From Candidatus Omnitrophota bacterium (lineage in GTDB: Bacteria > Omnitrophota > Gorgyraeia > Gygaellales > Profunditerraquicolaceae): DNA of 64,000 bases. Where the stretch lies: positions 792,359 through 856,358 of the forward strand of contig CAWDSS010000010.1 of NCBI GenBank assembly GCA_963805065.1, given 5' to 3'. Of the stretch, positions 5,349 to 53,435 are shown in pieces. A program made the position numbers and the translations under genes. Positions within the stretch are counted from its first letter, which is position 1; each line of letters starts with the position of its first letter. The notes under the pieces are model-generated. The model did not search any database. It saw nothing but the letters and a program-made list of their open reading frames with translations, and was not told where the DNA came from.

Positions 5349-5418
5349 TACTATTATTTTGCTTCAGTGTTTGTTCGCGTGCTGAAATCTGTCTTATTCT
5401 CCTCACGCTCTACATTAC

Positions 5419-5748
5419 GCGGGTCCTGCCTGCCGAGCCACCCTTTTCGTGCTCATTCACCTCGTCCCGCCATTGGCGGGCCTCGGCTGATTCTGCGCGA
5501 AAAGGGGACTCGGCTCGGCAGTCACCCGCTAATATACAAGGCGCTCGGAGATTGAATCTGACTATTTGTCGAAGAATTTTATGCGTTTCGCTGAAGGCAC
5601 ATTAGAAAATTTTCGGCACAGCTATTAAATAGTAGTGCGCAAGGAATTACGCTGAACGAAAGGCAGCGCTTAAGCGTAAGTCACCATGACCGAAAGTGAG
5701 GCGTAAGCCGAAGCGCACGGCGAAAATTTTCAGTGCCGGAAGCGAAAC
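5419..5748 (+). ncRNA. candidate structured non-coding RNA, family not recognised
   Basis: Two long imperfect helices. Helix 1: 5419-5449 pairs with 5498-5529, with an inner GC hairpin at 5466-5480. Helix 2: 5585-5620 pairs with 5719-5748 and encloses small hairpins, including GGC-GTAA-GCC at 5700-5709. The region is GC-rich compared with its flanks. Confidence 0.4.
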
Positions 5749-36403: not shown

Positions 36404-36961
36404 ATGGACAAGAAAAAAATAGAAAATGCAGTTAAGGATATTTTAGAGGCAATCGGAGAAAATCCCAAAAGAAAGGATCTCCTGGATACCCCTAAGCGCG
36501 TTGCCCAGATGTATGAAGAGATATTCTGCGGTATCCGTCAGAGCCCGAAAGAAGAGTTAGAGGTAGTCTTAGAGCAGAAACATAATGAAATCGTTCTCCT
36601 GAAAGGTATTCCCTTGTATAGCGTATGCGAACACCATCTATTACCATTCATAGGCAGAGCCCACGTGGCCTATATCCCCAAGAACGGCAGGGTGACGGGG
36701 TTGAGTAAAATCGCCAGGGTCGTAGATATTTTGTCCCGCCGGCCCCAGGTCCAGGAAAGGTTGACCACGCAGGTTGCGGATATAATTATGTCAAAGTTAA
36801 AACCGCTTGGCGTAATGGTGGTTGTTGAGGCAGAGCATCTTTGTATGTCTATGCGGGGAGTAAGAAAACCCGGGACCATGACCGTAACCTCTGCAGTAAG
36901 AGGCATTTTTAAGGAAAATCAGAAAACCCGTTCAGAAGCCCTGGCTTTAATGAAATCATGA
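36404..36961 (+). CDS. folE: GTP cyclohydrolase I
   Basis: [20 protein letters not shown] and [10 protein letters not shown]. Confidence 0.92.
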
Positions 36962-37824
36962 AAAGGCTGTTCTTAAGTTTAGCCATACTGGTTTCTATCA
37001 ATTTGTTTATCGCCCGCCCCAATATCGAAGCGCAAACTATCAAGCGAGATAAAGAGTTTTTTTTCAAATCAGACACGCTGATTAAAATCTGCCTGTATTA
37101 TTCCTCTTTAAAAGATCATAAGACTGCCGCAAGGGCCTTAGATACAGCTTACAGGATTGCAAAACATATCAAAGAGCCAAATTCCCGGGCAATAATTTTA
37201 AATGAAATAGTGGATAAATATATGCTTATGGGTGAAAATGAATTAGCATATAGAGTGGTTGGGTATATCGCATTGTCAGACGTCCAATCCGAAGCATTCT
37301 TTAGGATTGCCTATAAAGCCACTGAGCTTAGGGACTTTGGTTTTGCCACCAAAGTAACAAAACAGATAAAGGACCCGTTTTCTAAGGCCAAGGCGTTTTA
37401 CAGGATAGTTTATAAACTGGATGATTTAGGATTGTATGAACAGGCGATTAAATATGCAAACGAATTTGAACAGTCGCAGATTCTTATTGATGAATTTTTG
37501 TCTGCAGAATATCTGGCAAGAGAGCTGCTTAAGGAAAAACCTGAGTTTAGTCCCAAAAATCTTATTATAGGCGGGCATTCTCTAGATTCGGTTAGCCAAG
37601 ATGAGTTATATAATGAGTCAAATAAACTTACCCAAGTAGCTGACCAGTATTTAGATTTATTTTTATTTGGGCTTTGCAAAAAAACCCTAATCAAAGCTAG
37701 TCTGATAGCCGGAAAATTGGATTCGCAATTATTAAAGCAAGACGTTTCCCAAAAAATTGCGCTAGCCGACAAACGCAGGATTAAACTGGAAAAATATTAC
37801 AAAATCCCCGAGGATAAACAATAA
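36958..37824 (+). CDS. hypothetical secreted helical-repeat protein
   Basis: Signal-like N-terminus. Repeated helical ~35-aa units. No catalytic motif. Confidence 0.4.
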
Positions 37825-39375
37825 ATGATTGATTTTAAAGCTAATGAAAAAAAATATGCCTTGGTTTTGATTTTAATATTGGTGTTTACCGGTGTATTGT
37901 ATTTTCACCGCCTTGGCCAGGAAAGCCTGTCTACAGATGAATACTTCAGTTTGTATGTGGCTAGACAGTCTCTAGCTAATATTATTTGTAATTATAGAAC
38001 GGTTTCCAATCCCAACACTATCCCGCCGTTATACGCGATTATTCTCCATTATTGGTTGAATTTGTTTGGCCAAAGCGAATTTGCCCAGCGTTCTTTATCT
38101 GCGTCGTTGGGAGTATTAAGCGTTTATTTTTTATTCCGCCTAAGCTGTTTATTGTTTGACATCCGTACGGGTATGTTTTCAGCTCTACTGGGATGCCTTT
38201 CATATAGCTGGTTTTCGCTTTTTCGTCAGAATAGATGCTACGGCTTATTTATATTGCTTGTCCTGTTTTCGTTTTATTTTTTCTTTAAACTTGTTAAAAG
38301 AAAGGATGCAGGGGGATCGTTCGTTCCCCTGGCAATTACCAACACGTTGCTAGTATATACACATTACTTTTCTTTCCTGGTGATATTGCTCGAGGTGATA
38401 TTTGGAATATATGAATGGAGAAAAAATAAAAACTATCTAAAGAATATTGTATTAATGTGCATATTTGTAGGTTTGGCATATTTGCCGTGGTATTCAAATC
38501 TATTCTATGATTTAAGCAGGGAGCCCACCATTATAGATAAGGCCCCTCTGGTAAGTACCCCGAGGCTGATTTTTGATGTTTTGAGGCTAATGTTTTCCGA
38601 TTTCCATTTTATCTGGAGCCCACTTCTAGCCATCCTGTACCTTCCTTTTATAATACGAGGCATAGTTAGGGCAAAAAGGGATAATGCGGCAGGATCCAAC
38701 CATATTTTCTTATACATGGTTTTAATCTTCGCCATACCGTTTGTATTTCTGTATGGCTTTATTTATACGGACAGGATGCGTTATTATGCGCCGTTTATGT
38801 TCCCCATATTGATTTTCCTGGCTTACGGGTTTCTGGATTTGAATACTAGAGGCATAGCAAGAAAAACTTTTTTGTTTGCCGTATGCTTTTTTATTGTAAT
38901 CAATAATTTTATGGATTTCGGCGATTTTTATAATATACCTGCTGATGAAGAATGGAAACAGGCAGCCGCCCTGATAAAAAAAATACCGGATTACCGCAAC
39001 AAAAGCAATGTTTTTATATTCCAGACTACATACAATCCCCCGGTATTTTCTTATTATTACTGGAATCCGAATGTAGCCTCGTCGTTTATAAAGGATGTAG
39101 GGCAAAAAAACAATTACGCAAAGAACCTTTCTAAGATAGGCGCAAAAGAGCAGGTATTCGTGATTACGGACATGAAAGGCAAAATTTTCTTTGATCAACT
39201 GGCAGAATTACCCGAAGATGCCTGGATTTGGATCTTTAGATACCATGATTTATTCTTCCATAAGGATTTTAAGACAGAAAACCAAGGCAGGTATTTTTTC
39301 CACCAAATCAAGCTTAATAGAGAACTAACCCCAATAGATTTATTTTTATTAAAGAAGGTCCACAGTAATTCCTGA
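37825..39375 (+). CDS. ArnT/PMT-like (GT39/GT83-type) integral membrane glycosyltransferase
   Basis: More than 10 hydrophobic segments. Early-loop DEY motif (..STDEYFS..). Soluble C-terminal domain. Confidence 0.6.
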   Translation: MIDFKANEKKYALVLILILVFTGVLYFHRLGQESLSTDEYFSLYVARQSLANIICNYRTVSNPNTIPPLYAIILHYWLNLFGQSEFAQRSLSASLGVLSVYFLFRLSCLLFDIRTGMFSALLGCLSYSWFSLFRQNRCYGLFILLVLFSFYFFFKLVKRKDAGGSFVPLAITNTLLVYTHYFSFLVILLEVIFGIYEWRKNKNYLKNIVLMCIFVGLAYLPWYSNLFYDLSREPTIIDKAPLVSTPRLIFDVLRLMFSDFHFIWSPLLAILYLPFIIRGIVRAKRDNAAGSNHIFLYMVLIFAIPFVFLYGFIYTDRMRYYAPFMFPILIFLAYGFLDLNTRGIARKTFLFAVCFFIVINNFMDFGDFYNIPADEEWKQAAALIKKIPDYRNKSNVFIFQTTYNPPVFSYYYWNPNVASSFIKDVGQKNNYAKNLSKIGAKEQVFVITDMKGKIFFDQLAELPEDAWIWIFRYHDLFFHKDFKTENQGRYFFHQIKLNRELTPIDLFLLKKVHSNS

Positions 39376-39393
39376 CCGGCATAAAAAATTTTT

Positions 39394-40290
39394 CTAGACA
39401 AAGAAATCCCTGTCTAAACACCGATATTGTATCGCCTCTGAAAGGTGCTCTACCAAAATATCTTGGCTTCCTGCTAAATCCGCGATACTCCTTGAAACCT
39501 TCAATATCTTATCATAAGCCCGGGCGCTGAAATTTAATTCAGTCATCGCCAGCTTAAGTAACTCGCCTTCCTGTTTACCCAGGCAGCAGAACTTACGCAC
39601 CTGTTTATGGCTCATTTGCGCATTATAAAAAATACCCTCATTCTGTTCGCCGCCGGAGGAAAATCTTTCTCTCTGTATAGCACGGGCTTTATTTATCCGT
39701 ATCTTTATTTGCGCGGAGCTTTCCGCGGGTTGCGTGTTGGCCAGCTCCTGATAACGGGCAGCAGGGACTTCTATATGGATATCTATTCTATCCAAAAGTG
39801 GGCCGGATATCTTCGAGCGGTATTTATATACCTGTGTGGTACTGCACCTGCACGCAGATTTGAGTTGCCCCAGCGCGCCGCAGGGGCAGGGGTTCATGGC
39901 AGCAACCAGCATAAAAGAAGCAGGAAAGGAGATTGATTTTCTTATGCGGCAGACGCGTATAATGCCTTCTTCCAGGGGTTGCCTTAAGGACTCAAGGCAA
40001 CTGCGGTTAAATTCCGGGAGTTCATCCAGGAATAATACGCCATTGTGACTGAGGCTTATCTCTCCTGGTTGCGGTATGGAGCCGCCTCCCACTAAAGCAA
40101 CACTTGATAAACTGTGATGCGGGTTTCTAAAGGGGCGGGTCCCAATTATACCATCCTTAATAGGTGAGGTTACGCTGACAGAATGTATCTTGGTTATCTC
40201 AAGCGCTTCCTCAAGGCTTAAGTCAGGCATAATTGTAGGAATTCTTTTGGCGAGCATGGATTTGCCGCTTCCCGGAGGCCCAATCATCAG
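39394..40290 (-). pseudogene. comM: C-terminal fragment of comM/yifB (Mg-chelatase-like AAA+ protein)
   Basis: It reads ..HNVLMIGPPGSGKSMLAKR.. through to the C-terminus. The residues upstream of HNVLMIG derive from island DNA. Confidence 0.85.
40279..40290. repeat. left att core (CCCAATCATCAG)
   Basis: Identical to 52037-52048. It lies within the comM codons for LMIG. Confidence 0.8.
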
Positions 40291-40424
40291 GACATTGTGA
40301 ACGCAATGCAACATTTGAATTTGAATTAGTAGCAAGCCTACCTTAAAGCCTCAACACACACCCGCTATTGCTATAGTCAATATATAGAATTTAGGAGATT
40401 TATATAGTTTTCTATTAAAATATA

Positions 40425-40453
40425 TTGACAATATATATAATTTGTGCTATTTT
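40425..40453 (+). promoter_or_regulatory. putative promoter (TTGACA, 17-nt spacer, TGcTATTTT) for the island ATPase operon
   Basis: Read directly. The SD AGGAGG at 40465 precedes the ATG at 40475. Confidence 0.4.
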
Positions 40454-40474
40454 TATAGAAAATAGGAGGTTCTT

Positions 40475-41764
40475 ATGAAAGAATATAACCCCTTTAACCC
40501 TAATTCGATTGTTACGCCAACCTTGTTTGCTGGTAGAACAGAATACACATTAAGAATTATTAAAAAATTAGTCCAAGTAAAAAAGGGTATGCCCTCAAGT
40601 TTCTTCTTATACGGGGAAAGAGGAATAGGTAAGACTGCTTTAGCAAAATTAATTAAGTCTGTTGCAGAAATAAAAGACCCTATCTTGGGGAATCTTAATT
40701 TTTTAACTGCCTACTATTCGGTTGAGAAGAATCAATTCATATCAAGTGTAATGCAAGCTTCATTAAATGAACTAACGGATATGATGCCTAAAAATATAAT
40801 TGAACAATTGGGAACAAGGCTCGGGAACATATTTAAAAATGGAAAATTTTCAATTGGAGCGTTCTCCGTAGGAGTTGAGCTTGGTGGAGGAGAGCAAGAA
40901 AGAGAAACCACAGTACTTAAAGACCTCATAGTTTCTATTTTGTCCAATGTTGTACAAGAGATGAAAAAGGCAGAAACGGATGTAAAAGACGGTATTTTGA
41001 TTATAATCGATGAGATGGATAATATTGCCGATATAGGAATGTGTGCTCAACTTTTAAGGGGTGCCATTACTACTCTTGATGTTAAAGGCTTAGGAAACGT
41101 TTCTTTCTTACTAATTGGTTATGACGTAACGGTTGAAAATTTTTGTAGTGGCGACCAATCGGTAAGAAGGCAATTTGATTTTATTCCTTTAGGAGTAATG
41201 CCTTGGGATGAAGCCAGAGAGGTTCTTACAAAGGGTTTTACAGAAGCAAAGGTTACTTGGGACGAGGGAGCTTTATTAGAAAATATATTGGTCACAGGTG
41301 GTTATCCTCATTCTATCCAGATGATAGGTCACCATCTAATTGAAGTGGATACCGATATGTTTATAGATGATAAAGATTGGGATGAAGCCATAAACAAAAC
41401 TGCTTATGATTTACAAGCCAAGGATTTCGCAACCTTATATGACTTTAAGGGGAAGCCAAGCATCAATGAATTAATTTTAGATATTTTAGCCGTCAGAGGT
41501 AAACCCTTAACAAAAAATGAGATTTACAAATTGAGCGAAGGGAAAAACATTTATCAGTATATTCCAGCACTTATAAAACGAGGTAGCATTAAAGAGATAC
41601 AAACAAAAGGGCAAATTATATTACATTCCTCTCTATTTCGAACCTCAATTTTGTTTCATATTCTACCCAAAATCAAACATTCAGGTTATCTTAGTCACTT
41701 GGTCAAAGAGACGCAACAGGCAGATGAATCTTCTTCATCCTCTTCATCAGCATCTTCCAGATAA
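40475..41764 (+). CDS. ORC/Cdc6-Arch_ATPase-like P-loop ATPase with a C-terminal winged-helix-like domain
   Basis: N-terminal FAGRTEY...LYGERGIGKTALAK (Walker A), LIIIDEMD (Walker B), C-terminal ..LTKNEIYKLS...LIKRGSI.., and a poly-Ser tail. Confidence 0.65.
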   Translation: MKEYNPFNPNSIVTPTLFAGRTEYTLRIIKKLVQVKKGMPSSFFLYGERGIGKTALAKLIKSVAEIKDPILGNLNFLTAYYSVEKNQFISSVMQASLNELTDMMPKNIIEQLGTRLGNIFKNGKFSIGAFSVGVELGGGEQERETTVLKDLIVSILSNVVQEMKKAETDVKDGILIIIDEMDNIADIGMCAQLLRGAITTLDVKGLGNVSFLLIGYDVTVENFCSGDQSVRRQFDFIPLGVMPWDEAREVLTKGFTEAKVTWDEGALLENILVTGGYPHSIQMIGHHLIEVDTDMFIDDKDWDEAINKTAYDLQAKDFATLYDFKGKPSINELILDILAVRGKPLTKNEIYKLSEGKNIYQYIPALIKRGSIKEIQTKGQIILHSSLFRTSILFHILPKIKHSGYLSHLVKETQQADESSSSSSSASSR

Positions 41765-41840
41765 ATTTCGTTGTCTTATTCCCAAAATTCCCTGTTAGAT
41801 TTTCCCATTTCTTACGTCTATTAGAGTAGGAGGTGGGAAT

Positions 41841-41963
41841 ATGCGTATATCCAAAGACCAATACTATAAAACTATGGCTAGGGCATTGCTTAAAGGCTAT
41901 TTTTTGGGCTTAAAGAAAAGCAGGAAGCAAAAGAAAAAGATTAAAGTTTGTTGTTATCAGTAG
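41841..41963 (+). CDS. possible 40-aa basic peptide (not in the ORF track)
   Basis: AGGAGGTG lies 5 nt upstream of the ATG. Translation: MRISKDQYYKTMARALLKGYFLGLKKSRKQKKKIKVCCYQ. Confidence 0.3.
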   Translation: MRISKDQYYKTMARALLKGYFLGLKKSRKQKKKIKVCCYQ

Positions 41964-42004
41964 TATAATAAATATAAGTCATAATCAGTTATAAGATAAA
42001 ACTC

Positions 42005-44458
42005 ATGAAAGATATAAATCACGCCTTAGTTCCAAAAACTCATCCCTCAATGTATCTTATGCACAAATATTGGGCAAGGAAACCTCATAATGTGGTTTCA
42101 GAATATATTAAAGCATACTCCCAAGAAGGCGAAATTATCTTAGACCCATTTTTAGGTTCTGGAGTTACAGTTATAGAAGCTTTGAGATTGGGTCGTAAAG
42201 CCGTAGGAGTTGATTTAGACCCAATATCTGCTTTTATTACAAGAAATACAATTGCACCAGTTGACTTAAATAAATTTAGAGAAGCGTTTGATAAAATTGA
42301 AAATAATATGAAACAATCTATAAATAATTTGTATAAGACGAAATGTGGCAATAAGAAATGCAGTAAAGAAGTTATAGCAGAGGCGGTTATCTGGAATGAT
42401 GGCACGCCAAAAGAAATTAGATATAGTTGTTCGTGTAAGACTGGAAGTCTTTGGAAGCAAGTTGATGATGAAGACCTTAAAAACTTAAAAGATATAGATT
42501 CTAGAAAAATTAATTATTGGTATCCAGATACCGAATTGATTTGGAATACACGTATTAATGTCCATAAAGGAACAAAGGTTTCTGATTTATTTACTAAAAG
42601 AAACTTATTAGCTCTTTCAATGATATTAGAAGAGATAGGCAAAATAAAAGATAGGACAATTGAAAATTTGCTTAAATTTACTTTTTCATCAGCTCTGCCT
42701 CAATCAAGTAAATTAGTCTTTGTGATACGGCAAAGGGGTAGGTCTGGAGGAGCAGTCAAGGAAGAGACAAAAGAGGTTGGAAGTTGGGCTACAAGAGGAT
42801 ATTGGATACCAAAAGAATATTTTGAAATAAATGCTTGGAATTGCTTAGAAGAACGCTTTGATAAAATATTTAGAGGGAAAAAGCAATCCAATATAGAGAT
42901 TAACAAGGTTAACGAGGTTAGCAATTTTTCTGAATTAAAAAAGAAAGAGAATAATGTATTATTAATTACTAAATCATGTTTGAATTTAAGTGAAATTACT
43001 AAGAATAGCATAGATTATATTTTTACAGACCCCCCTTATGGAGATAGTGTGCCTTATCTTGAATTAGATTTAATGTGGAATGCTTGGCAAAAATTTAAAG
43101 TTAACTTTGATGATGAGATAATTATAAGTAACAGTCCATTAAGAAATAAAACTTTTGATATATATGAGAAAATGTTAAGTACGGCTTTTGTAGAGATGTT
43201 TAGAGTCTTAAAGGCAGATAGATATATGACCGTAACTTTTCACAATACTGATATAAAAATCTGGAATTCTATAATTAGAGCTGTTGCTTATGCTGGATTT
43301 GATTTAGAGAAAATTATATATCAACCTCCTGCAAGACAATCTGCGAAAGGTTTGCTAGCTCTTTATGCAAGTGCAGTAGGCGATTATTATATCAGATTTA
43401 AAAAACCAAAAGGTAATAAACCTGTATCAGCAGCTGATATTGACCAAGCAAGATATGAAAGAATTGTTGTCGAATCTACTAAGAAAATATTAGCAGAAAG
43501 AGGAGAACCCACCCCTTATACTCACATTCTAAATGGGGTTATCGTTGCCTTAAGAAAAGAGGGCGCATTACTTACTGGCGATAAAAATCCTGATAATGTT
43601 TTGAAAGAACACAAGGATAAAGAATTCAAAAGTATAGATGTAGAAGATAAGAAAGGTAAAGTGTTAGGACAGAAATGGTGGTTTTCTGATGCTTCTACAG
43701 TTCCTTTCTTAGAAATTGTTCCTTTAAGCGATAGATTAGAAACTGCTATTATTGAAGTATTGAATCGCAAGACAAAGATATCCTTTGATGATGTATTACA
43801 AGAGATATTTATTAAATTTCCTAATGCCCTGACTCCTGATTCACAAGATGTAAAAGACCTTTTGGAAGAATATGCTGCGCAAACTGAAGATGGGAATTGG
43901 ATGCTTAAGCCGATGCTAAAAATAAGAGAATCAGAACATAGCGAGATGATTTATTATATATCACAGATAGGGAAAAGAATGGGTTATAAAATATGGATTG
44001 GTAAAAAAGAACAAGGGGCTACTTACCAAAAGAAGAAACTATTCAATTTTTGTGATTATAATATTCAGAAATTAAAGAATATTAATGAAGATATTCTAGA
44101 TAAAATTCAAAATATTGATATATTGTGGATAAATGAAGATAGAATAGATTCTGAATTCGAAGTTGAGAATACTACAGCAATAACCGAATCAATTATAAGA
44201 GGAGGAAATATTCCTTATAGAGTCAAGAGGTTCATAATTTTACCAGAAGAAAGAGCAGAATTTTATCATAGAAAAATTAAAGAACCTTTACTCGTTGATA
44301 GAATAAAAGATGATTGTTGGCAGAATATATTCTATACTAAATTAAAGGAATTTTTTATAGAAAGTAAAAGACACAAGATTAAATTTTCTGATTTTGAAGA
44401 AATAATATCGCAGAAAGCTGCAATTGAAGAAACAGGACAAAAGAGATTCGAATTTTAA
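42005..44458 (+). CDS. COG1743/DUF1156-type Zn-ribbon adenine DNA methyltransferase fused to a C-terminal PD-(D/E)xK-like domain
   Basis: HKYWARKPHN..DPFLGSGVT (SAM motif I) at the N-terminus. CGNKKC...CSC Zn-ribbon. FTDPPYGD (motif IV) at about aa 340. C-terminal ..IDILWI...EFEVENTT.. is nuclease-like. Confidence 0.7.
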   Translation: MKDINHALVPKTHPSMYLMHKYWARKPHNVVSEYIKAYSQEGEIILDPFLGSGVTVIEALRLGRKAVGVDLDPISAFITRNTIAPVDLNKFREAFDKIENNMKQSINNLYKTKCGNKKCSKEVIAEAVIWNDGTPKEIRYSCSCKTGSLWKQVDDEDLKNLKDIDSRKINYWYPDTELIWNTRINVHKGTKVSDLFTKRNLLALSMILEEIGKIKDRTIENLLKFTFSSALPQSSKLVFVIRQRGRSGGAVKEETKEVGSWATRGYWIPKEYFEINAWNCLEERFDKIFRGKKQSNIEINKVNEVSNFSELKKKENNVLLITKSCLNLSEITKNSIDYIFTDPPYGDSVPYLELDLMWNAWQKFKVNFDDEIIISNSPLRNKTFDIYEKMLSTAFVEMFRVLKADRYMTVTFHNTDIKIWNSIIRAVAYAGFDLEKIIYQPPARQSAKGLLALYASAVGDYYIRFKKPKGNKPVSAADIDQARYERIVVESTKKILAERGEPTPYTHILNGVIVALRKEGALLTGDKNPDNVLKEHKDKEFKSIDVEDKKGKVLGQKWWFSDASTVPFLEIVPLSDRLETAIIEVLNRKTKISFDDVLQEIFIKFPNALTPDSQDVKDLLEEYAAQTEDGNWMLKPMLKIRESEHSEMIYYISQIGKRMGYKIWIGKKEQGATYQKKKLFNFCDYNIQKLKNINEDILDKIQNIDILWINEDRIDSEFEVENTTAITESIIRGGNIPYRVKRFIILPEERAEFYHRKIKEPLLVDRIKDDCWQNIFYTKLKEFFIESKRHKIKFSDFEEIISQKAAIEETGQKRFEF

Positions 44459-44504
44459 TAGTATCTTGACAGAGAAAAACCTTAAGGAGTTGAATAGTTT
44501 AAGA

Positions 44505-45302
44505 ATGAACAAACAAAAACAATCAATAGTTGCTTGGGTGAGGAATTGTTTAAAAATACCTTGGCGAGGTGCTTTAGTCTTAACACTAACGTTATTTATA
44601 TTGTTATATATTATAATTTCAGATTGTTTTAAGGGAATTGATTGGTTTGATTTTAAATTTTTACCGAGTTGGATAAACGGGCTTGGCAGTTTCATAACGG
44701 GAAGGGTGATTATATGCGTTTCTATTTATTTACTTTTTTTGGCACTTTTAAAGACACATGTAGATAATAAAATTAATCAAATCGCAATCTCACTTTTGGC
44801 TGCATTTATTGGTGTTTTCATAGCTCTGAATATAAATGGCTACTATAGTTCCAAAAAAGATTCAGAAATTTATAAGTTCATTTTAATAAATACTCAATTA
44901 GAAATTGATTCTAATTTGCTTTCGATAAAAGAAATTGAAAAAAACATATATGAGCTTAATAAAAAACCAATAAACTTACTCACCAATTCACTAATAAACA
45001 GTTCGCTTCAAAATCCCGTTTTCTTGAAATATGCAGACTCAGTAAACTTGATATTATTAAGCCAAATTAACAATCGTATTATAATTTGTACCAACGAATT
45101 AGAATCTATGCTTACGGATAAAATAATCTATGATGAAAATGTAGATAGATATCGTGTTGATATTAGTCTACTTAAAATTATGATGGCAAAATTTAAGCAA
45201 TTTAATGCTAAAGTTACTAATAAGGTTTTTGAGTTACCAAAAGATGAGTTAAATAAATTAGAAGAAGCAGGAATAAACATTGATTTTAACTATAAATACT
45301 AA
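44505..45302 (+). CDS. multi-pass membrane protein with a cytoplasmic helical tail
   Basis: 3-4 hydrophobic segments in the first ~130 aa. No known motif. The ORF track starts at 44424, but the internal ATG at 44505 avoids overlap with the methyltransferase. Confidence 0.5.
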   Translation: MNKQKQSIVAWVRNCLKIPWRGALVLTLTLFILLYIIISDCFKGIDWFDFKFLPSWINGLGSFITGRVIICVSIYLLFLALLKTHVDNKINQIAISLLAAFIGVFIALNINGYYSSKKDSEIYKFILINTQLEIDSNLLSIKEIEKNIYELNKKPINLLTNSLINSSLQNPVFLKYADSVNLILLSQINNRIIICTNELESMLTDKIIYDENVDRYRVDISLLKIMMAKFKQFNAKVTNKVFELPKDELNKLEEAGINIDFNYKY

Positions 45303-45801
45303 ATGTGTCTTATTAAACACCTACAGTCAGATACATGAATAAAAAACAATTAATTGTTATTTTAGTACTTTAGCATATCCCCACAGCATATTTTAAATAG
45401 CATAGTCAATTTAGCATTGTAGATACAGCATTAAGGTAAAAAAATAAAACAGCTTAAATTAAAAAATTTTGTCATTTTTGCTTTAACTATATGAAAGTAA
45501 ATGGGTTATTTTTTTTGAAAATTGCCTTGAAAACCGACGAGGAATGTGTTAAGCTTATAATGTAAATTTTGTGGCGTTGCGTTAATTAGGGCGCAGATAA
45601 GTCCAATAGGGCGAAAGCCAAGAAGTATAAGAAGCGAACTATACTTTTGGTTGTTCGCCTATTTTGTTTTATAGGGACTTATGAAAGACAAACGCCCCAA
45701 GATAATCTTAGAATACGAACCCTCAGAAGACTCACAGAGGCGACTTGAGCAGGTTTTTGAGATACTTTTTAAGGAAGATGTGGAAAGGAAGTCAGCCGAA
45801 A

Positions 45802-46125
45802 ATGAACGAAATAGTGATAACAGAAGTAAGCATATATCCGGTCAGGCCTAAAGACGGACTCGTTGCTTTTGCTTCCTGCCTTTTTGATAACAAACTCTCT
45901 TTAAATTCCATAGCCATATACACTAAGCCCGATGGTAGTGGTTACCGCCTAGTGTATCCTGCTAAAACACTTCCCAACTGCAAAGAAATAAATTTGTTCT
46001 ACCCTATTAACAAAGAAACAGCGGATATAATTCACAAGGCAATTATAAGCGAATATGAAAAATTGGCTGAAAAGGTAATGAAAGGAGTAAACGATGAACA
46101 TCGAAGAATTGGAAGACATTTTTAA
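45802..46125 (+). CDS. SpoVG-like nucleic-acid-binding protein
   Basis: IVITEVSIYPVRPKDGLVAFASCLFDNKLSLNSIAIY..DGSGYRLVYP matches the SpoVG N-terminal fold pattern. Start taken at the internal ATG. Confidence 0.6.
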   Translation: MNEIVITEVSIYPVRPKDGLVAFASCLFDNKLSLNSIAIYTKPDGSGYRLVYPAKTLPNCKEINLFYPINKETADIIHKAIISEYEKLAEKVMKGVNDEHRRIGRHF

Positions 46126-47221
46126 AAATCACTTACTTTTACCCGATACTATGGTTATAAGAGTCGTATTAGCTACTATAGTTGCGAACAAAATTAAAGG
46201 TGACCCCCTTTGGTTGTTCGTAATAGCACCGCCCTCGTCAGCTAAAACAGAAATTATATCATCGCTTAACGGCTTACCTGATATTTTTCCCTTATCGAGC
46301 CTAACATCACATACACTCGCTAGTGGAATGGTAAGCGTAGATGATAAAGAAAGAAGTCTAATTTACAAGCTAACCAATAAAATTGTTACTCTAAAAGATT
46401 TCACGTCTATTCTTACAATGCACCGTGAGTCAAGAGCGGAAATCCTTTCTCAGCTAAGAGAAATATATGACGGTAGTTATAAAAAGCATTTTGGGACTGG
46501 AGAAAAAACTGATTGGACAGGTAAAATCGGCATTATCGCAGGAGTAACCCCCATAATTGACACCTATTACTCCATATTTCAACTACTCGGTGAAAGATTT
46601 ATACAGTTCAGAATGGAACTTCCAGAGCCCGTTGAAGTAGCCCTCAAAGCAATAGCGAATAGTGGTAAGGAAAAAAAGATAAGATATGAGCTCAAGGGCG
46701 CTATAGCAAAATTCATAAATGAAATAACAATGCCACACAGGGTAATAACTGTTCCTTTGCAGATAGAGAGGCGTATCGCTTATCTTTCAGCTTTTTGTGT
46801 CAAGGCAAGAAGCGGGTCTGTTAGGGAAGGACGAAGCAGGGAGTTAATATATACTCCACCGCCAGAAGCTCCACCCCGTTTAGCAAAACAGTTTATTATG
46901 TTAGCAAGAGGTCTGGCTATAGTTAATGGGAAGAAAATTATTCAAGAAAAAGATTACAATGTTGTTTACAAGGTAGGTCTTGATACTGTGCCCAAACTGC
47001 GCCGAGACATTCTCTCTATTTTAAATGATGAAGGCACTCTCTCCACTAACGACCTAACGAGCAAATTACGTTATCCCTATTCAACAGTAGATAGAGCACT
47101 TGAAGAGCTAAGGAGCCTTGATTTAGTTGATTGTAACGAAACAAAACAATGGAATATAAGTAGTGCGACAAAAAATTATCTGGCTGAAATTAAACCTGTT
47201 TCCGAAACGTCGATAGGATAA
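46094..47221 (+). CDS. P-loop protein (DUF3987/replicative-helicase-like) with a C-terminal wHTH
   Basis: Walker-A-like APPSSAKTE. Walker-B-like IVTLKDFTS. C-terminal ..STVDRALEELRSLDLV... Its start overlaps the SpoVG-like gene. Confidence 0.45.
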   Translation: MNIEELEDIFKNHLLLPDTMVIRVVLATIVANKIKGDPLWLFVIAPPSSAKTEIISSLNGLPDIFPLSSLTSHTLASGMVSVDDKERSLIYKLTNKIVTLKDFTSILTMHRESRAEILSQLREIYDGSYKKHFGTGEKTDWTGKIGIIAGVTPIIDTYYSIFQLLGERFIQFRMELPEPVEVALKAIANSGKEKKIRYELKGAIAKFINEITMPHRVITVPLQIERRIAYLSAFCVKARSGSVREGRSRELIYTPPPEAPPRLAKQFIMLARGLAIVNGKKIIQEKDYNVVYKVGLDTVPKLRRDILSILNDEGTLSTNDLTSKLRYPYSTVDRALEELRSLDLVDCNETKQWNISSATKNYLAEIKPVSETSIG

Positions 47222-47278
47222 ATGTAATAATAAATCAATCTATCCGACTTTTCGGAAAACAACAGAAAGGAGATAGGA

Positions 47279-47470
47279 ATGAATAAGTTAAGAGAAATAA
47301 GGAAACTAAAAGGCCTTACCCAGTACGAACTCGGCAAGGCAATCCGTAAGTATGTCTCATTCATAAGCAACGTTGAAACAGGGAAGTATGACCCGTGGCC
47401 AAATGAAAAAGAAGCTTTAGCTAAGGCTCTGGGCGTTCAGGTAAGCGACATTTTCCCCAAAACGTCCTAA
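47279..47470 (+). CDS. XRE-family HTH regulator
   Basis: LREIRKLKGLTQYELGKAI is a classic HTH_3 pattern. Confidence 0.75.
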   Translation: MNKLREIRKLKGLTQYELGKAIRKYVSFISNVETGKYDPWPNEKEALAKALGVQVSDIFPKTS

Positions 47471-47655
47471 ATCATTTGTGTTTTTTATCATTTTTAATAG
47501 CGAGAGCCAAACCCACACTGGAGACCAAAGGCAGGCCTCCAGCCCCTTCAAGGCGTGTTTGGTTTCTAAGGAGGGAGCACAACGCAGGCGTGCAGACCAC
47601 AGCATAGGCTTGAGTCACTGCTTGGCGCATCTAGCCTGCAAAGACATTATAAACT

Positions 47656-48213
47656 ATGAAAAAACTAACTACCGAGGAGTGCGAGCAGATTGGAATACTT
47701 ACCATTGTGCGGGCGCAGAAATATCATATGTTTAAGATTAGAGAAACGTGGCTTAGACTTGAATTCAACAATGTTTTAGCGCAGAGGCTTGAGGCTATCG
47801 GCCTATACAGCCTAATGCCTAACAGTCCTCTTAGCCTAAGTTTTACCACTTCTAGACTGCATTTTGGTGGTGTGAGATACTGGTTTATCTGTCCTAATTG
47901 CGATAAAAGAGTTGGTAAGTTATTCAAGCCAAAATCCGAACGTGCGTTTTGGTGTCGGCATTGTTATAACCTGACCTATAAATCAACACAGACGCATAAT
48001 CACAGGGTAAACTTGCTCGTAAAGAGGCTAAAGGCTATGGAGGATGAAGCATTTACGCAGGTTAAAAGATTGCTGAGAACACGTAGAGGGTTTGGGGTTT
48101 ATATGAAGGTAGAGGAGAAATTGAACAGGCCTTTTCCCCCACCTCATTGGGTTCGTGGAGACCGCGAGAAGGAAGCATACAATAAATATATTAAGCCGTT
48201 ATTAGAAGGTTAG
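47656..48213 (+). CDS. zinc-ribbon protein of unknown function
   Basis: GGVRYWFICPNCDKRVGKL...FWCRHCYNLTYKS gives two CxxC pairs. Confidence 0.5.
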   Translation: MKKLTTEECEQIGILTIVRAQKYHMFKIRETWLRLEFNNVLAQRLEAIGLYSLMPNSPLSLSFTTSRLHFGGVRYWFICPNCDKRVGKLFKPKSERAFWCRHCYNLTYKSTQTHNHRVNLLVKRLKAMEDEAFTQVKRLLRTRRGFGVYMKVEEKLNRPFPPPHWVRGDREKEAYNKYIKPLLEG

Positions 48214-48425
48214 AAGTTGAGGAATTTAGAAATGGATAACTTAAAGGCTCTGGCAAGTTTCTCTAACGTAGCGAGTTTGACATCACAAGGATGTTTACTC
48301 TCAAGCCTCTGGATATGCTTATAATCAATCTCTGCAAGTCCAGAAAGCTCTTCTTGAGTCAAGTTGTGTTTTAACCTTAATTGGCGAATCCTATGGGAAA
48401 GTTTTACCTTAATGTCCTCGCTCAT
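48210..48425 (-). CDS. XRE-family HTH regulator
   Basis: IRQLRLKHNLTQEELSGLAEI is an HTH_3 pattern. It is the only minus-strand gene inside the island. Confidence 0.75.
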   Translation of the reverse strand: MSEDIKVKLSHRIRQLRLKHNLTQEELSGLAEIDYKHIQRLESKHPCDVKLATLEKLARAFKLSISKFLNF

Positions 48426-48588
48426 AGCGTGAATTTAGCATAAAATAGAAGACATTGACACCTTACCAGTAAGGTGATATATTGTTGTATATATTAAGAT
48501 ATAGAAAAATATGCCTATAGAGTCAAAGTGATTTAAATTTAAGGCAACTCTCAAAGAGGTTGCCTTTTCTGTTGAGAGGAGGCAATGA

Positions 48589-49029
48589 ATGAAGAAGTTA
48601 TTATGTTTGATTACAGTTGTTTCTTTTTTATTTTTAGCGATTGGCTGTTGCACAATAGTTAGCGGTAGGAATCAAAATCTTCCTGTGATATCTACTCCGA
48701 GTGGCGCAAGAGTTATAGTTAATGGTGTTCAGCAACAGTCTCCTTGCACATTAGTATTGGATAGGCAACAACTTTTATATCAAGTTAGGATAGAAAAGGA
48801 TGGTTATGAACCTGTAGAAATAACTTTACGCAGAGGAGTAAATGGTTGGGTATGGGGCAATATTCTGTTTGGTGGTATTATTGGTTTAATAGTCGACATT
48901 TGCACAGGCTCTGTTCATAAATTTACGCCTACAGAAGTGGAAGTAAATTTAGTTCAGAAAAAATTAGGTCTAAATGATTTAAAGAGCAAAGATATACTAT
49001 TTGTTAAATTAGAAGAAGTAAAACATTAG
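48589..49029 (+). CDS. PEGA-domain lipoprotein
   Basis: Lipobox LAIGC. PEGA-like ..GARVIVNGV...PCTLVL......VRIEKDGYEP. C-terminal GNILFGGIIGLIVD segment. Confidence 0.6.
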   Translation: MKKLLCLITVVSFLFLAIGCCTIVSGRNQNLPVISTPSGARVIVNGVQQQSPCTLVLDRQQLLYQVRIEKDGYEPVEITLRRGVNGWVWGNILFGGIIGLIVDICTGSVHKFTPTEVEVNLVQKKLGLNDLKSKDILFVKLEEVKH

Positions 49030-49061
49030 CATTATTCCATCCAAGTCTTATTCAAGCTTGG

Positions 49062-49349
49062 ATGGATGTCTTTATTATTAAGTATATTTCTAAAATGACT
49101 AGAAAACAATTAATAGTTGCTTGGCTTATGGGGATAGCAATTTGCGCTACGTTCTTATTTTATCCTAAACGATATTTCATTAGTGAAAAAGGTTATCAAT
49201 GCTTCTTTGATAAATTGGATAAAGATGATATGTATTATCATAGCGCAATGCCAGTTATGCAATGGGGCTATGTTATTCCCATTTCTCTTTCAATTTTAAT
49301 CATAGGTGGTTTATTAAGCTATACTCTTCGGGAAAGACAAAATAAATAG
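49062..49349 (+). CDS. small two-TM membrane protein
   Basis: Two hydrophobic segments. No motif. Confidence 0.35.
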   Translation: MDVFIIKYISKMTRKQLIVAWLMGIAICATFLFYPKRYFISEKGYQCFFDKLDKDDMYYHSAMPVMQWGYVIPISLSILIIGGLLSYTLRERQNK

Positions 49350-49366
49350 TTAGCATAGGAAACGCT

Positions 49367-50176
49367 ATGAAAAAATATTTGATAATAGTAATATGTTTAT
49401 TGTTGTGCGGATGCGCATCGCCTAGTCTCTATATACGTTCTGATATGGATAGCGACTATAAGCTGGCAAAATCAACAGATAAAATATCGGTATTGATTAT
49501 TGACGATACAGATATAAGAACTCGAGAATTTGGTAAACTATTAATATTCGAAATGAAAAATGCAGGTTTTAATATCGTTGATAACGTGCTGGATTCTAAC
49601 ATTACACTATGCTATACGTTAGACCAAGAAACATCACAAATTGATTTAAGTCTACCAATGACCACTCCTTCTTATACAAAAGGTTCTTTTTCTACCTATG
49701 GAGCCTATGGGAGCGGAAGTGGAACATATTCTCAAACGACCACACAAACACAATATATCCCTTATTCTGTGCCTTTTACAGTCAAGTCAGTGTTAATTTC
49801 GCTTTATCCAACATGGAAATTCGATTTCAAGAAATCTATATGGGAAGGCTATTTAGGGGTAGAAGAAGGAACATTCAAAAAATATGCGAAAGACTGTGTT
49901 AGAATGCTCTTGTCTCATTATGGCGAAAATTTTGATGGTTACGTCCCTTTAACAATAAAAAAGATAAATAATAAGGTGAAAGTCGATATAGAATCTTTTA
50001 ACAATCAGCGTCTTGAAGAAAAAGAAAGAATCAGAAAGAAAATAGCTGACTTTGCTCGTCAACATAAAGATTTTGAAGAACTAAGACCTATTATGTATAA
50101 ACTTTCTTTAGACCCGAAGAATGCAAATCTTACTTTACAGGAATTGTATGATATGGCAAAAAACAAGAAACCCTAA
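49367..50176 (+). CDS. lipoprotein of unknown function
   Basis: Signal peptide with lipobox LLCGCA. Confidence 0.5.
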   Translation: MKKYLIIVICLLLCGCASPSLYIRSDMDSDYKLAKSTDKISVLIIDDTDIRTREFGKLLIFEMKNAGFNIVDNVLDSNITLCYTLDQETSQIDLSLPMTTPSYTKGSFSTYGAYGSGSGTYSQTTTQTQYIPYSVPFTVKSVLISLYPTWKFDFKKSIWEGYLGVEEGTFKKYAKDCVRMLLSHYGENFDGYVPLTIKKINNKVKVDIESFNNQRLEEKERIRKKIADFARQHKDFEELRPIMYKLSLDPKNANLTLQELYDMAKNKKP

Positions 50177-50305
50177 AAAATGTGTGGCGTATAATTTAGG
50201 CATTAGATATAAAATTATTCCTTCTTGGGGGGTGTATAGGGGGTAGGTAAGGCCAGATATTTTTTTATTGATATTTGCTATAGTATATGCTATACTTTAT
50301 TATTG

Positions 50306-50470
50306 ATGGACATCCGCAAGATAAGAAAGAAACTTAACCTTACTCAAGAACAGCTAGCACAAAGATTAGGCGTCTCGTTTACTACGGTTAATAGGTGGGA
50401 GAAAGGCAAGAATGAGCCTAGTCCTCTGGCTCTTAGGGCATTAGAAGAATTGGAGAATAAGATAAAATGA
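50306..50470 (+). CDS. 54-aa HTH protein (not in the ORF track), possible directionality or regulatory factor
   Basis: Translation [39 protein letters not shown].. Its stop overlaps the recombinase start (ATGA). Confidence 0.6.
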
Positions 50471-52092
50471 AGGTAGCCATTTACGCAAGAGTGTCAACAG
50501 AGAAACAAGAAAAACAGGAAACAGTCCAGTCTCAGCTAGAGGCCTTAAGGGATTACGCTAAGAAGAGTAACTATACCGTTTGTGGAGAGTATATTGACGA
50601 GGGTTACTCTGGCGAGCTGTTAGACAGGCCAGCATTGGACAGGTTAAGAGACGACGCTAAGAAGAAACTCTTTGATATTGTTTTGGTTCATTCTCCAGAC
50701 AGGTTTTCAAGAAAGTTTATTTATCTAGGGCTAGTTCAGGAAGAGTTAAAGAAAAGCGGGGTTAATATCGTTTTCTTGAACAGGCCAGACAGCAAGGATA
50801 CTCCCGAAGATAATCTCTTAAATGGAGTGCAAGGCCTTATTGCTGAGTATGAGAAGGCAAAGATATTAGAGCGCACCCGCAGGGGCAAGCAACATAAAGC
50901 TAGGGCGGGCGTAATAGTTACTAGCATTGCTCCTTATGGGTATCGATATATCCAGAAAGATAAAAGCCAGAATAAAGACGGCTACTATGAGATTAATCCA
51001 GAGGAAGCAACGGTTGTAAGTATGATATTTGACCTCTTCGTCAATAAGCAGATGAGCATTAGAGCGATAGCCAGAGAATTGACCCGACGAGGTATAGCGA
51101 CCCGCAAGGGCAAGCATTGGCGCACAAGCACTCTACACAGGATAATTCGCAATGAGACTTACGCAGGGGTTACTTACTATAATAAGCATATCGCTATGGA
51201 ATCGCTTAAGCCAAGAAAAGATAACGGATACAGAAGGCGCAAGAATTGCAGCTTGCACCTGCGTCCAAGAGAACAATGGATTCCTATTCAATTGCCAGAG
51301 CAGTTAAGGTTGGTCGATAGAGAGACCTTTGATTCAACGCAGAAGCAACTTAAGCGGAATAGCGAATTATCACCTCGCAACGTTAAATATCAATATTTAT
51401 TGAAAGGCCTTTTGCAGTGTGGGGAGTGCAATTCTCCCTATTTAGGTACGCCTTGCCATAGTAAACTGTATTATAGGTGCGGTAACAGACATCGAACATT
51501 CCCCTTGCCTAAAGAGTGCAAGGCGCCGACGCTTAGCGCTCCTATTCTTGAGAATTTAGTTTGGTCTACACTTAGTCAAGCAATACAGCACCCTCAAATA
51601 ATCATTGAGCAGGCTAAGAGGTTGCACTTTAACGAGGGCAAACGGCGCAGAGATACCGAGAAGGAATTAGAGCGGGTAGAAACTGCCTTAGTCAATACGC
51701 AGAAAGAAGAAGATAGGTTGTTAGACGCCTATCGCAGTGAAATTATAACCCAAGAGCAATTAAGGGCGCAGATGGCCAAGATTCAAGAGAAGAAAGACAC
51801 GCTGAGCAAAGAAAAACAGAGATTAAACGAGGTAGTATCTCAAGTTGTGCCAGTAGACCGAGTAAAAAATAGCATAAAAGAGCACTGTAAACTAGTAAAA
51901 CCCCGCCTGAAAAATCTCACTTTTGAGGAAGAGCAACAAATTTTACGCCTACTAGTTAATAAGGTAGTGCTTGAAAGGGATAAAGTTAGAATAAAAGGCG
52001 TAATTCCTCTCTATGGCGAGAATGGTGATATTGCGTCCCAATCATCAGCGCATTATGCCCGCCGGCAACAGCTACCTCCAAAGCCCTTTTAG
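50467..52092 (+). CDS. large serine recombinase (integrase)
   Basis: N-terminal resolvase domain [12 protein letters not shown] (catalytic Ser) and ..SPDRFSR... Recombinase domain, Cys-rich zinc ribbon (CGECNSPY...CGNRH) and coiled coil. The ORF runs across the right att core. Confidence 0.9.
52037..52048. repeat. right att core (CCCAATCATCAG)
   Basis: Identical to 40279-40290. Confidence 0.8.
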
Positions 52093-52711
52093 CTAAGTAT
52101 TGACCCTTGACCTCTGAAAAATCCAGTTGGTAACAGGCTTTTTGTTGAAATAAAGATCCCAAATCTAGCGTTAGAGGTTCAATCATAGGATTATGTAAAA
52201 ATTCCACAGCTTGCCTGAGTGTTTGCAATGGGAATACCCGGATGTCCGATACTATGGCTGCTTCTCTGGCATTGTTAAACGGCAGAATGAGATTTTTAAT
52301 CTGCCGGTCCCCGCCGCAATCCGAAGACATAGCAATGCTTATGGCAAGCGCGCCTTGTATTGGCCTTAAAGAACCATCCAAAGACAATTCCCCCAGTACG
52401 CAGTATTTTGTCAACAATTCGCTGTTCAATTGCCTTGTTGCCGCAAGTATCCCCAAGGCAATTGCCAGGTCAAAACACGCGCCCTCTTTCTTGATATCCG
52501 AGGGAGCCAGGCTTATAGTAATCCTCTCGGCAGGCCAATCAAACCCGCAGTTTTTTATGGCTGACTTAACCCTTTCCTTGCTTTCTTTAACTGCAGTATC
52601 AGTCAAGCCGACAAGCGTTACCGCAGGTAAACCCCGGGAAACATCTACCTCGACCTCAACAGGATAAGCTTCTATTCCAAATATACCAAAACTGAATACC
52701 TTGGCCAGCAT
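52037..52711 (-). pseudogene. comM: N-terminal fragment of comM/yifB
   Basis: It reads MLAKVFS..(Lon-protease-like N domain)..[19 protein letters not shown] and then continues into island sequence. Joining it to 40290 restores [16 protein letters not shown] in frame. Confidence 0.85.
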
Positions 52712-52847
52712 GTAAAATCGCCTCCTCTGGTATAATAGACGCTAAATACTACAAAATCTTACAAGAAAAAAGCTTGCTGGCTCCTCAATTTTGTGCTAAT
52801 CTAAACCTTAATAATCGTCCTTTTTATAGCGAAAGCGAGCCTGAAAA

Positions 52848-53435
52848 ATGAAGATAGCAATGAATAAAGGACTGCTTAAAAATATCTTGATTGTGCTTTT
52901 ATCTACTATAATTATCTTCAGTATTTTTAGGTACAAGGTCCTGTTGGATGAAAAATATGCATTAATGAATAACTTAGGCGAGGCAAGGACACAGGTATCT
53001 AACCTGGAAAAAGATAAACAAAACCTGTTGCAGGATATAGAGAAAAGGAAAGAAGCAGAAGAGAGGCTTATCAATGAGACATCAGGGCTAAAAAGCAATC
53101 TTAAGGCCAGTAGAACCAGGATGACAAAGTTGTTTACAGCAAATGACCAAACGCACAAGGCCCTTAACGAGCTAAATTGCCGTTTTTCTTTGCTAAAGAC
53201 TGAGAATGCCGCACTAAAGGAACAACAAGAAAACATGGCCAAGGAAAATGAGGCATTCAGGGTAAAGCTTAGCTCCATTGCGGAGCTTAAAAAGGCAATT
53301 AAGGAATTAAAGAAACACAAAACCCCTGGCATTAAAACCGAAGAAGGAAACCAGGGATTCGTCATGAAGGATGGCCAGCCTACGTATCCAGCTAAAGTAA
53401 AAATAGAAGTAGCCCCTGCCTCTCAAAAAGAATAA
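52848..53435 (+). CDS. membrane-anchored coiled-coil protein
   Basis: One N-terminal TM segment followed by heptad-rich sequence. Confidence 0.45.
   Translation: MKIAMNKGLLKNILIVLLSTIIIFSIFRYKVLLDEKYALMNNLGEARTQVSNLEKDKQNLLQDIEKRKEAEERLINETSGLKSNLKASRTRMTKLFTANDQTHKALNELNCRFSLLKTENAALKEQQENMAKENEAFRVKLSSIAELKKAIKELKKHKTPGIKTEEGNQGFVMKDGQPTYPAKVKIEVAPASQKE

Follow-up and report, generated by a model that had tools for sequence, protein, structure and literature searches.

The Listeria phages A118 and phi10403S lie in comK, where an element dependent on a large serine recombinase (LSR) sits inside a competence gene and its precise excision restores that gene. The gene comM is another such landing site. 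Of the predicted site-specific LSRs, 12.4% target Mg-chelatase/comM homologs, and DNA competence genes are enriched among LSR targets (Durrant et al. 2022, PMC10083194). The ComM helicase of other bacteria helps to integrate and recombine transforming DNA; its interruption lowers transformation and is thought to shield elements from deletion by incoming DNA (PMC11472951). In Wolbachia, the magnesium chelatase gene is the integration site of most sr1WO prophages (PMC9203015). Here we describe a stretch of 64,000 nt from a Candidatus Omnitrophota bacterium (contig CAWDSS010000010.1; this whole stretch is the window, and all positions are counted within it) in which comM is divided by an element of 11,758 bp. 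We consider it highly probable, at about 90%, that this element (40291-52048) entered comM by conservative site-specific recombination through its own LSR.

How does this locus compare with the systems already described? The elements that Durrant et al. found in Mg-chelatase/ATP-dependent-protease (ComM/YifB) genes have the same recombinase class, the same target family and the same logic, insertion inside a competence gene; the difference is the host phylum, which is Omnitrophota-like here. The AbaR and AbGRI islands and other elements of Acinetobacter baumannii interrupt the same gene in its Mg-chelatase (AAA) domain, often carry defense cargo and are proposed to benefit from reduced transformation (PMC11472951). 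However, AbaR islands, which account for more than half of the A. baumannii comM interruptions, belong to the Tn7-like elements and are moved by transposition instead of serine recombination. The comK phages of Listeria differ in that comK encodes a regulator and comM a helicase, in that they are complete prophages, and in that their recombinase is only distantly related to the one described here. An earlier note on this DNA had called comM an insertion hot spot in other phyla, and this is documented in the literature (PMC10083194, PMC11472951, PMC9203015).

The two ends of the element lie within a single gene. The C-terminal part of comM, from the Walker A motif to the stop codon, occupies 39394-40290 on the minus strand, and the N-terminal part, comprising the ChlI domain and the start of the AAA domain, occupies 52049-52711 on the same strand. 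Both breakpoints carry the 12-mer CCCAATCATCAG, which has two exact copies in the window (40279-40290 and 52037-52048) and none on the opposite strand; similarity around the copies reaches 26 nt at an imperfect 81% identity. Deletion of 40291-52048 (11,758 bp) in silico yields a single minus-strand open reading frame (ORF) of 519 amino acids in which both comM pieces are fused in frame. The joined product is a full-length match to TIGR00368, the YifB family Mg chelatase-like AAA ATPase model, scoring 613 bits against a cut-off of 362 over residues 5-511, with ChlI and a weak Mg_chelatase match on the N-half and Mg_chelatase and Mg_chelatase_C on the C-half. Since the window contains 653 repeat pairs of 12-mers, a repeated 12-mer alone is not rare; this pair is significant because its copies sit exactly at both breakpoints of one gene and the frame is kept on removal. 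The element also differs from its surroundings in base composition, with a GC content of 35.3% against 41-42.5% in the flanks and only 29.7% in the stretch 42000-45500. The arrangement described in the earlier note, comM split by an 11.8-kb element with an identical 12-mer at the junctions and in-frame restoration on its removal, proved exact to the base. A small correction applies to the minus-strand ORFs given there, since the ORFs as called enter the element slightly (52711-51986 and 40335-39394).

The closest relatives of both the restored ComM and the recombinase occur in metagenome-assembled genomes (MAGs) of Candidatus Omnitrophota. One of these (L196, GCA_043797735.1) has an intact comM of 510 amino acids, about 80% identical to that of the window over the C-terminal half, and is collinear with the window by tblastx on both sides of it. 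The shared genes are those for EF-G, YchF, PurH, a FolC-like protein, MnmE and GTP cyclohydrolase I on the C-terminal side of comM, and those for DUF212, LysM-YkuD, AccA and PadR proteins on the N-terminal side. The halves of the window's comM abut at approximately 8640-8660 of L196, and tblastx found no L196 match to window positions 40306-52036. The C-half, queried as the ORF 40335-39394, is about 80% identical to the intact ComM P0123. Among the 120 ComM proteins most similar to it (71-81% identity in the C-half), the majority are intact with about 510 amino acids, and the intact relatives possess ChlI, Mg_chelatase (AAA+) and Mg_chelatase_C together, the domain set of the ComM/YifB family. 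A search of related genomes for an intact comM, as the earlier note had proposed, therefore recovered the uninterrupted gene. Four of the 120 start with the element-derived residues MLHCVH(N/I)(V/I)LMIGPPG and two others start at MIGPPG, one of the latter (L197) with a confirmed attL, a sign that a minority of the relatives' genomes have insertions at this position.

Two local differences were observed in this comparison. Next to the 3' end of comM, positions 36958-39375 of the window encode an unknown protein of 288 amino acids and a PMT_2 glycosyltransferase of 516 amino acids, where L196 (9781-10251) has a single gene of 156 codons; the contig encoding P0017 likewise has a PMT_2 gene near comM, and this looks like ordinary host variation. 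At L197 (GCA_001805465.1, MHGH01000018.1), a second Mg_chelatase_C fragment of 72 amino acids lies at 5287-5505, 2.6 kb downstream of the C-half of the split comM. It adjoins HEPN and helix-turn-helix (HTH) genes and may have been left behind by an earlier rearrangement of that locus.

The attachment sites can be read from the junctions. The attL core at 40279-40290 is the 12 bp held in common with attR, and its inferred crossover dinucleotide is AG (CT on the comM strand) at 40289-40290. The element side of attR (52030-52048) consists of the P-arm motif ATTGCGT (52030-52036), the 12-bp core (52037-52048) and the crossover AG (52047-52048). The P' arm of attP, at 40291-40346 on the plus strand, contains GACATTGTGA followed by ACGCAAT (40301-40307) and also codes for a recombinase tail ending ..GHCERNATFEFELVASLP*; it is in register with the P arm and with two related loci, L203 and L204. 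The reconstructed attP of the window is ATTGCGT CCCAATCATC AG GACATTGTGA ACGCAAT. Uninterrupted attP sites are present on the two metagenomic contigs, ATTGCGT CCACAGTAGC AG GATATTATGA ACGCAAT in L203 (recombinase P0023) and ATTGCGT CCATGTCAGT AG GATGTTGTGA ACGCAAT in L204 (recombinase P0038). Their 7-10-2-10-7 layout with AG at the center is that of the window, which bears out the earlier description of the reconstructed site as an imperfect palindrome centered on AG. In-register identity between the arms of attP is 15 of 30 positions with a run of 7, and the site of about 50 bp is, as in LSR systems, an imperfect inverted repeat about a non-palindromic central dinucleotide. All but one of the 12 arms examined, read towards the crossover, consist of ATTG(C/T)(G/T)(T/G), 10 nt and the central dinucleotide; the exception is L197.

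Comparison of junctions among related elements narrows the position of the crossover. On the comM strand, it is confined to the 12-bp core in the window, to CTGA in L086 and to CTGATGA in L088; in L200, where both ends are present, the core is only TT, the first two bases of the same codon. The junctions of L086, L088 and L200 thus converge on the AG (CT on the comM strand) that had been proposed as the crossover inside the core. A crossover with a 2-bp overlap and dinucleotide-set polarity, as expected of an LSR, is therefore supported by comparison of junctions and not biochemically, and the 2-bp core of L200 together with its opposite orientation agrees with the central dinucleotide alone setting polarity. 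The restored target has a partial dyad about the same dinucleotide, with CCGGnGG at -17 to -11 in both arms and 10 of 20 in-register matches, a score that is unremarkable given that 1,253 window positions reach it. The 9 nt of the P' arm beside the center (GACATTGTG) are the commonest comM codons for H-N-V; because the arm copies these common codons, a 21-nt pattern of the junction matches the intact comM of many bacteria.

The recombinase gene lies at the right end of the element (50467-52092, plus strand) and encodes 541 amino acids in its integrated form, the last 14 codons being host DNA antisense to comM. The product matches the Pfam families Resolvase (PF00239, 3e-36, residues 3-149), Recombinase (PF07508, 2e-20) and Zn_ribbon_recom (PF13408, 5e-11), and it keeps every invariant column of an alignment of 28 homologs, R8 and S10 included. 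The N-terminal domain is thus of the resolvase type, with the nucleophilic serine and conserved arginines, and it matches the catalytic domain of the TP901-1 integrase at 1e-16. A structural model of the homolog P0038 (59% identical over 97% of the query) shows the zinc ribbon followed by long helices at 379-483 and matches the full-length SPbeta, Bxb1 and phiC31 integrase structures at E values of 8e-24 to 6e-16, as well as the Listeria LI integrase; from the Pfam matches and the fold of this homolog, the C-terminal part is read as a recombinase domain and a zinc ribbon with an inserted coiled coil. The suggestion that this is a serine-recombinase element is accordingly upheld by an intact LSR with three domains and all invariant residues.

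More than 4,000 homologs of the recombinase pass 1e-20. The best-scoring named LSR models of NCBIfam are CcrB and CcrC of SCCmec and XisF of the cyanobacterial fdxN element. These proteins have the same three-domain architecture but differ in their targets, orfX and fdxN, and their scores (118, 118 and 102 bits for CcrB, CcrC and XisF) fall far under the equivalog cut-offs of 900, 900 and 375, placing the recombinase outside all three families. Scans of IMG/VR with the recombinase and with the 28-sequence profile found two close relatives, L115 and the fragment L116; the remaining matches are at most 42% identical, and at most 35% where most of the protein is aligned.

What do the relatives of this recombinase target? 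Gene neighborhoods were read for ten members of its clade, eight of them integrated and two with an uninterrupted attP. The target is comM in six of the eight integrated contexts, namely the window, L086/L087 (P0007), the P0017 contig, L088/L089 (P0024), L199 (P0036) and L200 (P0046). DNA was available for five of these, and all five are inserted at the same codon; the P0017 contig is represented by gene calls only. L200 (GCA_030765735.1, JAVCBZ010000031.1, 441-12424) is a complete sister element of about 10.5 kb, inserted in comM in the opposite orientation with the 2-bp core TT. In the L200 genome, dprA lies directly upstream of comM. L115 (IMGVR_UViG_3300049640_001177, ~11480-11560), whose recombinase is 57% identical, has the same P-arm motif and lies in a radC-like gene with CT at the center. 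Recombinases of this clade have thus switched target between two genes that are commonly associated with DNA uptake or repair.

At 76% identity, P0002 of L082-L085 (JGI 3300013138 and others) is the recombinase most similar to that of the window. In L082, at ~5090-5140 after the recombinase gene, a normal P arm and AG are followed by about 19 nt of comM-like sequence encoding ..GGHNV and then by a methyltransferase gene and a ResIII helicase gene, and the comM N-half is not nearby. This arrangement may be a rearranged attR or the accretion of a second element.

The sister elements have almost nothing in common beyond the recombinase by tblastn, and their cargo is nearly wholly different. L086 carries a terminase small subunit gene, L088 a TrwB-like protein and Replic_Relax, another element a proteasome-like protein and a nuclease, and yet another a tyrosine integrase and a SpoVG-like gene. 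As cargo is hardly shared, no conserved backbone can be defined except a pair formed by an HTH_3 gene and the recombinase gene. In the window, the HTH_3 gene (50303-50470, plus strand; Pfam HTH_3, 2.5e-17) overlaps the recombinase start by 4 nt. This pairing recurs in four clade members (L082, L088, L203 and the P0017 contig) and is not found in L199 or L204, and L200 has an HTH_17 gene in this position.

The attP site of this element lies inside the recombinase gene itself. The crossover falls 14 codons before the stop of the integrated gene, and in the circular form the ORF would run into 40291-40346, encode 546 amino acids and end ..SGHCERNATFEFELVASLP*. Consequently, the tail ..ERNATFEFELVASLP would be made only in the circular form, and the tail of the integrated enzyme is host-derived. 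The same tail ..ERNATFEFELVASLP* is conserved on the P' sides of L198, L094, L200, L203 and L204, and it forms the C-terminus of at least 9 of 120 recombinase homologs; as a conserved acidic tail of the full enzyme it can be written ..ERNT-FEFELVA-LP. Between the window and L200, the last 12 codons of the tail differ by six synonymous and two non-synonymous codon changes. Judged from these sequences, the recombinase tail is conserved at the protein level across the clade. In the P0038 model, the tail is a beta-strand with a predicted local distance difference test score (pLDDT) of approximately 80, placed after a disordered linker of low confidence.

A similar layout exists in Wolbachia phage WO. 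Among annotated phages, its sr1WO group has the nearest recombinase, aligned over 94-96% of the protein at 31-32% identity. In phage WO (L201/L202), as here, the recombinase coding sequence crosses attP, and its C-terminus differs between the circular and prophage records; the two versions diverge at a position flanked by the inverted AACATTGT/ACAATGTT repeats in the WO attP. WO differs in being a tailed phage of 40-66 kb with an alphaproteobacterial host and in its arm motif (AACATTGT..ACAATGTT). Its site in the chelatase gene is possibly a few codons farther upstream than the present one, as read from a host flank of 138 nt only. We put forward tentatively, and as rather unlikely at present, that attP within the gene is an integration-dependent switch in this LSR clade, from the Omnitrophota elements to phage WO, by which the circular element alone encodes the full enzyme. 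If so, the two states of the element might make two enzymes, tuned for integration versus excision, for binding of a recombination directionality factor (RDF) or for rapid turnover. The extreme C-terminus of the phiC31 integrase adds an acidic patch to RDF binding (bioRxiv 10.1101/2025.05.02.651858), which we treat as a lead only.

The remaining genes of the element, which the earlier note had regarded as unusual cargo, were judged to be ordinary island cargo. At the left end, a gene on the plus strand (40475-41764) encodes a P-loop ATPase of 429 amino acids (AAA_16 or KAP-like), a possible defense component, with AAA_16 and KAP_NTPase matches near threshold and a match to phrog_6841 at 3e-18. 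Its PADLOC and NCBIfam defense matches are weak, those of PADLOC having E values of 6e-5 or worse. Two direct repeats of 36 nt, 78% identical and 51 nt apart (40372-40407 and 40423-40458), occupy the AT-rich gap between attL and the ATPase gene, where they could act as operator, promoter or origin-like element. The next gene (42005-44458, plus strand) encodes an N6/N4 DNA methyltransferase of 817 amino acids (788 from a start at 42092) that matches Pfam N6_N4_Mtase at 1e-20 and the PADLOC models MTase_II and PglX-like at 8e-64 and 9e-61; its C-terminal domain is of the NmeDI_C type, PF27126 being precomputed on an identical product. It is followed on the plus strand by a gene for an orphan membrane protein of 265 amino acids (44505-45302). 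A word-indexed search of 5.8 billion proteins returned only this protein itself, with no family or PDB match, and a single-sequence AlphaFold2 model was poor (pLDDT 44) with N-terminal helices.

These three genes make up the low-GC block. The module of methyltransferase, ATPase and membrane protein may be a restriction-modification-like, defense or addiction unit. PADLOC, applied to all of the cargo, detected no complete known defense system; the methyltransferase models alone score well, and no nuclease partner was found. A 22-nt repeat (95% identical, 44516-44537 and 49103-49124) lies near the 5' ends of the orphan gene and of an uncalled ORF of 95 codons (49062-49349), and its copies would encode similar N-terminal residues, KQ(S/L)IVAW.

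In the central part of the element, all genes but one lie on the plus strand. A small ORF of 56 codons (45681-45851) has no Pfam match and resembles, by tblastn at 2e-5 and 9e-5, small ORFs just upstream of the recombinase in L088 and L199. It overlaps the gene for a SpoVG-like protein (45745-46125; Pfam SpoVG, 3e-9), and L199 also has a SpoVG-like gene followed by an HTH gene. The following gene (46094-47221) encodes a replication-type helicase-like protein of 375 amino acids with a C-terminal winged helix (HTH_5). It is matched by 6,341 representatives, many of which are 600-900 amino acids long and are matched in their C-terminal part. Among eight homologs scanned with Pfam (seven of them 587-924 amino acids), N-terminal domains were recognizable in four: Prim-Pol in two, one of which also has PriCT_1, DUF3854 in a third, and NrS-1 polymerase HBD in the fourth. 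On the strength of these N-terminal replication domains, the 375-residue protein is read as a replication-type module.

Downstream lie an HTH_3 regulator of the Cro/CI type (47279-47470; Pfam 4.5e-9, phrog_3) and a zinc-ribbon protein of 185 amino acids with weak treble-clef and CxxC matches (47656-48213). A second HTH_3 regulator on the minus strand (48210-48425; Pfam HTH_3, 7.7e-9) is divergent from the block that runs from the PEGA gene to the recombinase gene and is a possible switch repressor. That block begins on the plus strand with a PEGA-domain protein of 146 amino acids (48589-49029; Pfam PEGA, phrog_6823 at 4e-21) and continues with a protein of 269 amino acids (49367-50176) that has no significant family match in Pfam, PADLOC, NCBIfam or PHROGs. 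Pfam, PHROGs and NCBIfam identified no capsid, terminase, tail, relaxase, coupling-protein or type IV secretion genes in the element, which consequently cannot be classed as a prophage, an integrative and conjugative element or an integrative and mobilizable element. An Rfam scan of 39000-53000 gave no match.

How might the element have reached this position, and can it leave again? We propose that exchange occurred at CT (AG on the plus strand), which forms positions 1 and 2 of the Leu codon immediately ahead of the Walker A motif. By analogy with comM interruptions in other bacteria, the insertion would inactivate ComM and so lower the host's removal of the element by transformation. The element would be expected to excise again if a directionality factor were made, and the circular form may replicate through its helicase-like protein. 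The view of the earlier note that the element is apparently still mobilizable is plausible, and the intact recombinase, regulators and att arms argue for it.

Several observations weigh against this account. In neither JGI metagenomes nor IMG/VR did a degenerate pattern covering the four junctions find an empty site or a circular junction of the same species. The JGI scan returned 25 loci, of which 18 are uninterrupted comM genes from other bacteria, in which the HNVLMIG codons fit the pattern by chance, one is the attL of a related element (L094) and six are unrelated; the IMG/VR scan returned none. No RDF was recognized in the element, for which small ORFs such as 45681-45851 and the HTH proteins are candidates. 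Conjugation, mobilization and capsid genes were absent by Pfam and PHROGs, which leaves no evident route of cell-to-cell transfer. Finally, what comM does in Omnitrophota is extrapolated from other phyla.

The first two of these points would also be expected if the same LSR insertion had since become a fixed, immobile island through loss of its directionality factor or inducing signal, and the integrated recombinase without the conserved tail and the cargo without transfer genes fit such a history. We regard this as possible but on balance doubtful. The recombinase ORF is intact with all invariant residues, the att arms match those of relatives, the core is perfect, and three HTH regulators and the replication-type gene are likewise intact; moreover, RDFs of LSR systems are small, diverse and seldom recognizable from sequence. 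That excision would restore comM in frame, and that the element has its own regulators, could instead point to a regulatory switch adopted by the host, in which programmed excision restores comM when competence is needed. Such "active lysogeny" has examples in the Listeria comK phage and the Bacillus skin element, and other bacteria use LSRs for programmed excision, as the XisF model in NCBIfam attests. Yet comM is uninterrupted in most close relatives, the unrelated cargo and the use of either orientation at the site fit independent parasitic insertions, and the XisF equivalog scores only 102 bits against 375, all of which makes a host-adopted switch improbable. A heterocyst-type developmental element was rejected, as the ComM relatives are non-cyanobacterial and XisF is sub-threshold.

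Could the split gene be an assembly artefact, or the product of another mechanism such as a Tn7-like transposon or a tyrosine integrase? Tn7-like elements do target comM in Acinetobacter. However, an 18.8-kb Logan contig (run ERR10755942) has the same right-hand junction, and its stated coordinates imply that it would extend about 4.1 kb to the left of attL. Pfam and NCBIfam found no transposase, TnsABC-like or tyrosine integrase gene in the element, and insertion by a Tn7-like transposon or a tyrosine recombinase was rejected on this ground; the target site is not duplicated outside the att core, and the architecture of the junctions is that of an LSR attP. Artefact and other mechanisms are together very improbable, and conservative insertion by the element's own LSR is the reading that we retain.

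LSR elements in comM form the largest target class described so far for LSRs, and to this class the present element adds a well-resolved case. For annotation, comM at this locus is best treated as one gene interrupted by a mobile element and not as two gene fragments, and the 11.8 kb between the att sites as horizontally acquired. A little-studied, Omnitrophota-like phylum joins the hosts that have an LSR landing site just before the comM Walker A motif. Testable att sites are available from the locus and its relatives, in the form of an attP whose architecture is verified in nature, an attB and a crossover dinucleotide backed by several independent junctions. The clade also offers natural data on a single target codon that receives elements in either orientation according to the central dinucleotide. 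Lastly, the placement of attP within the recombinase gene, together with the conserved tail that it encodes, poses a small and concrete question for LSR biochemistry.

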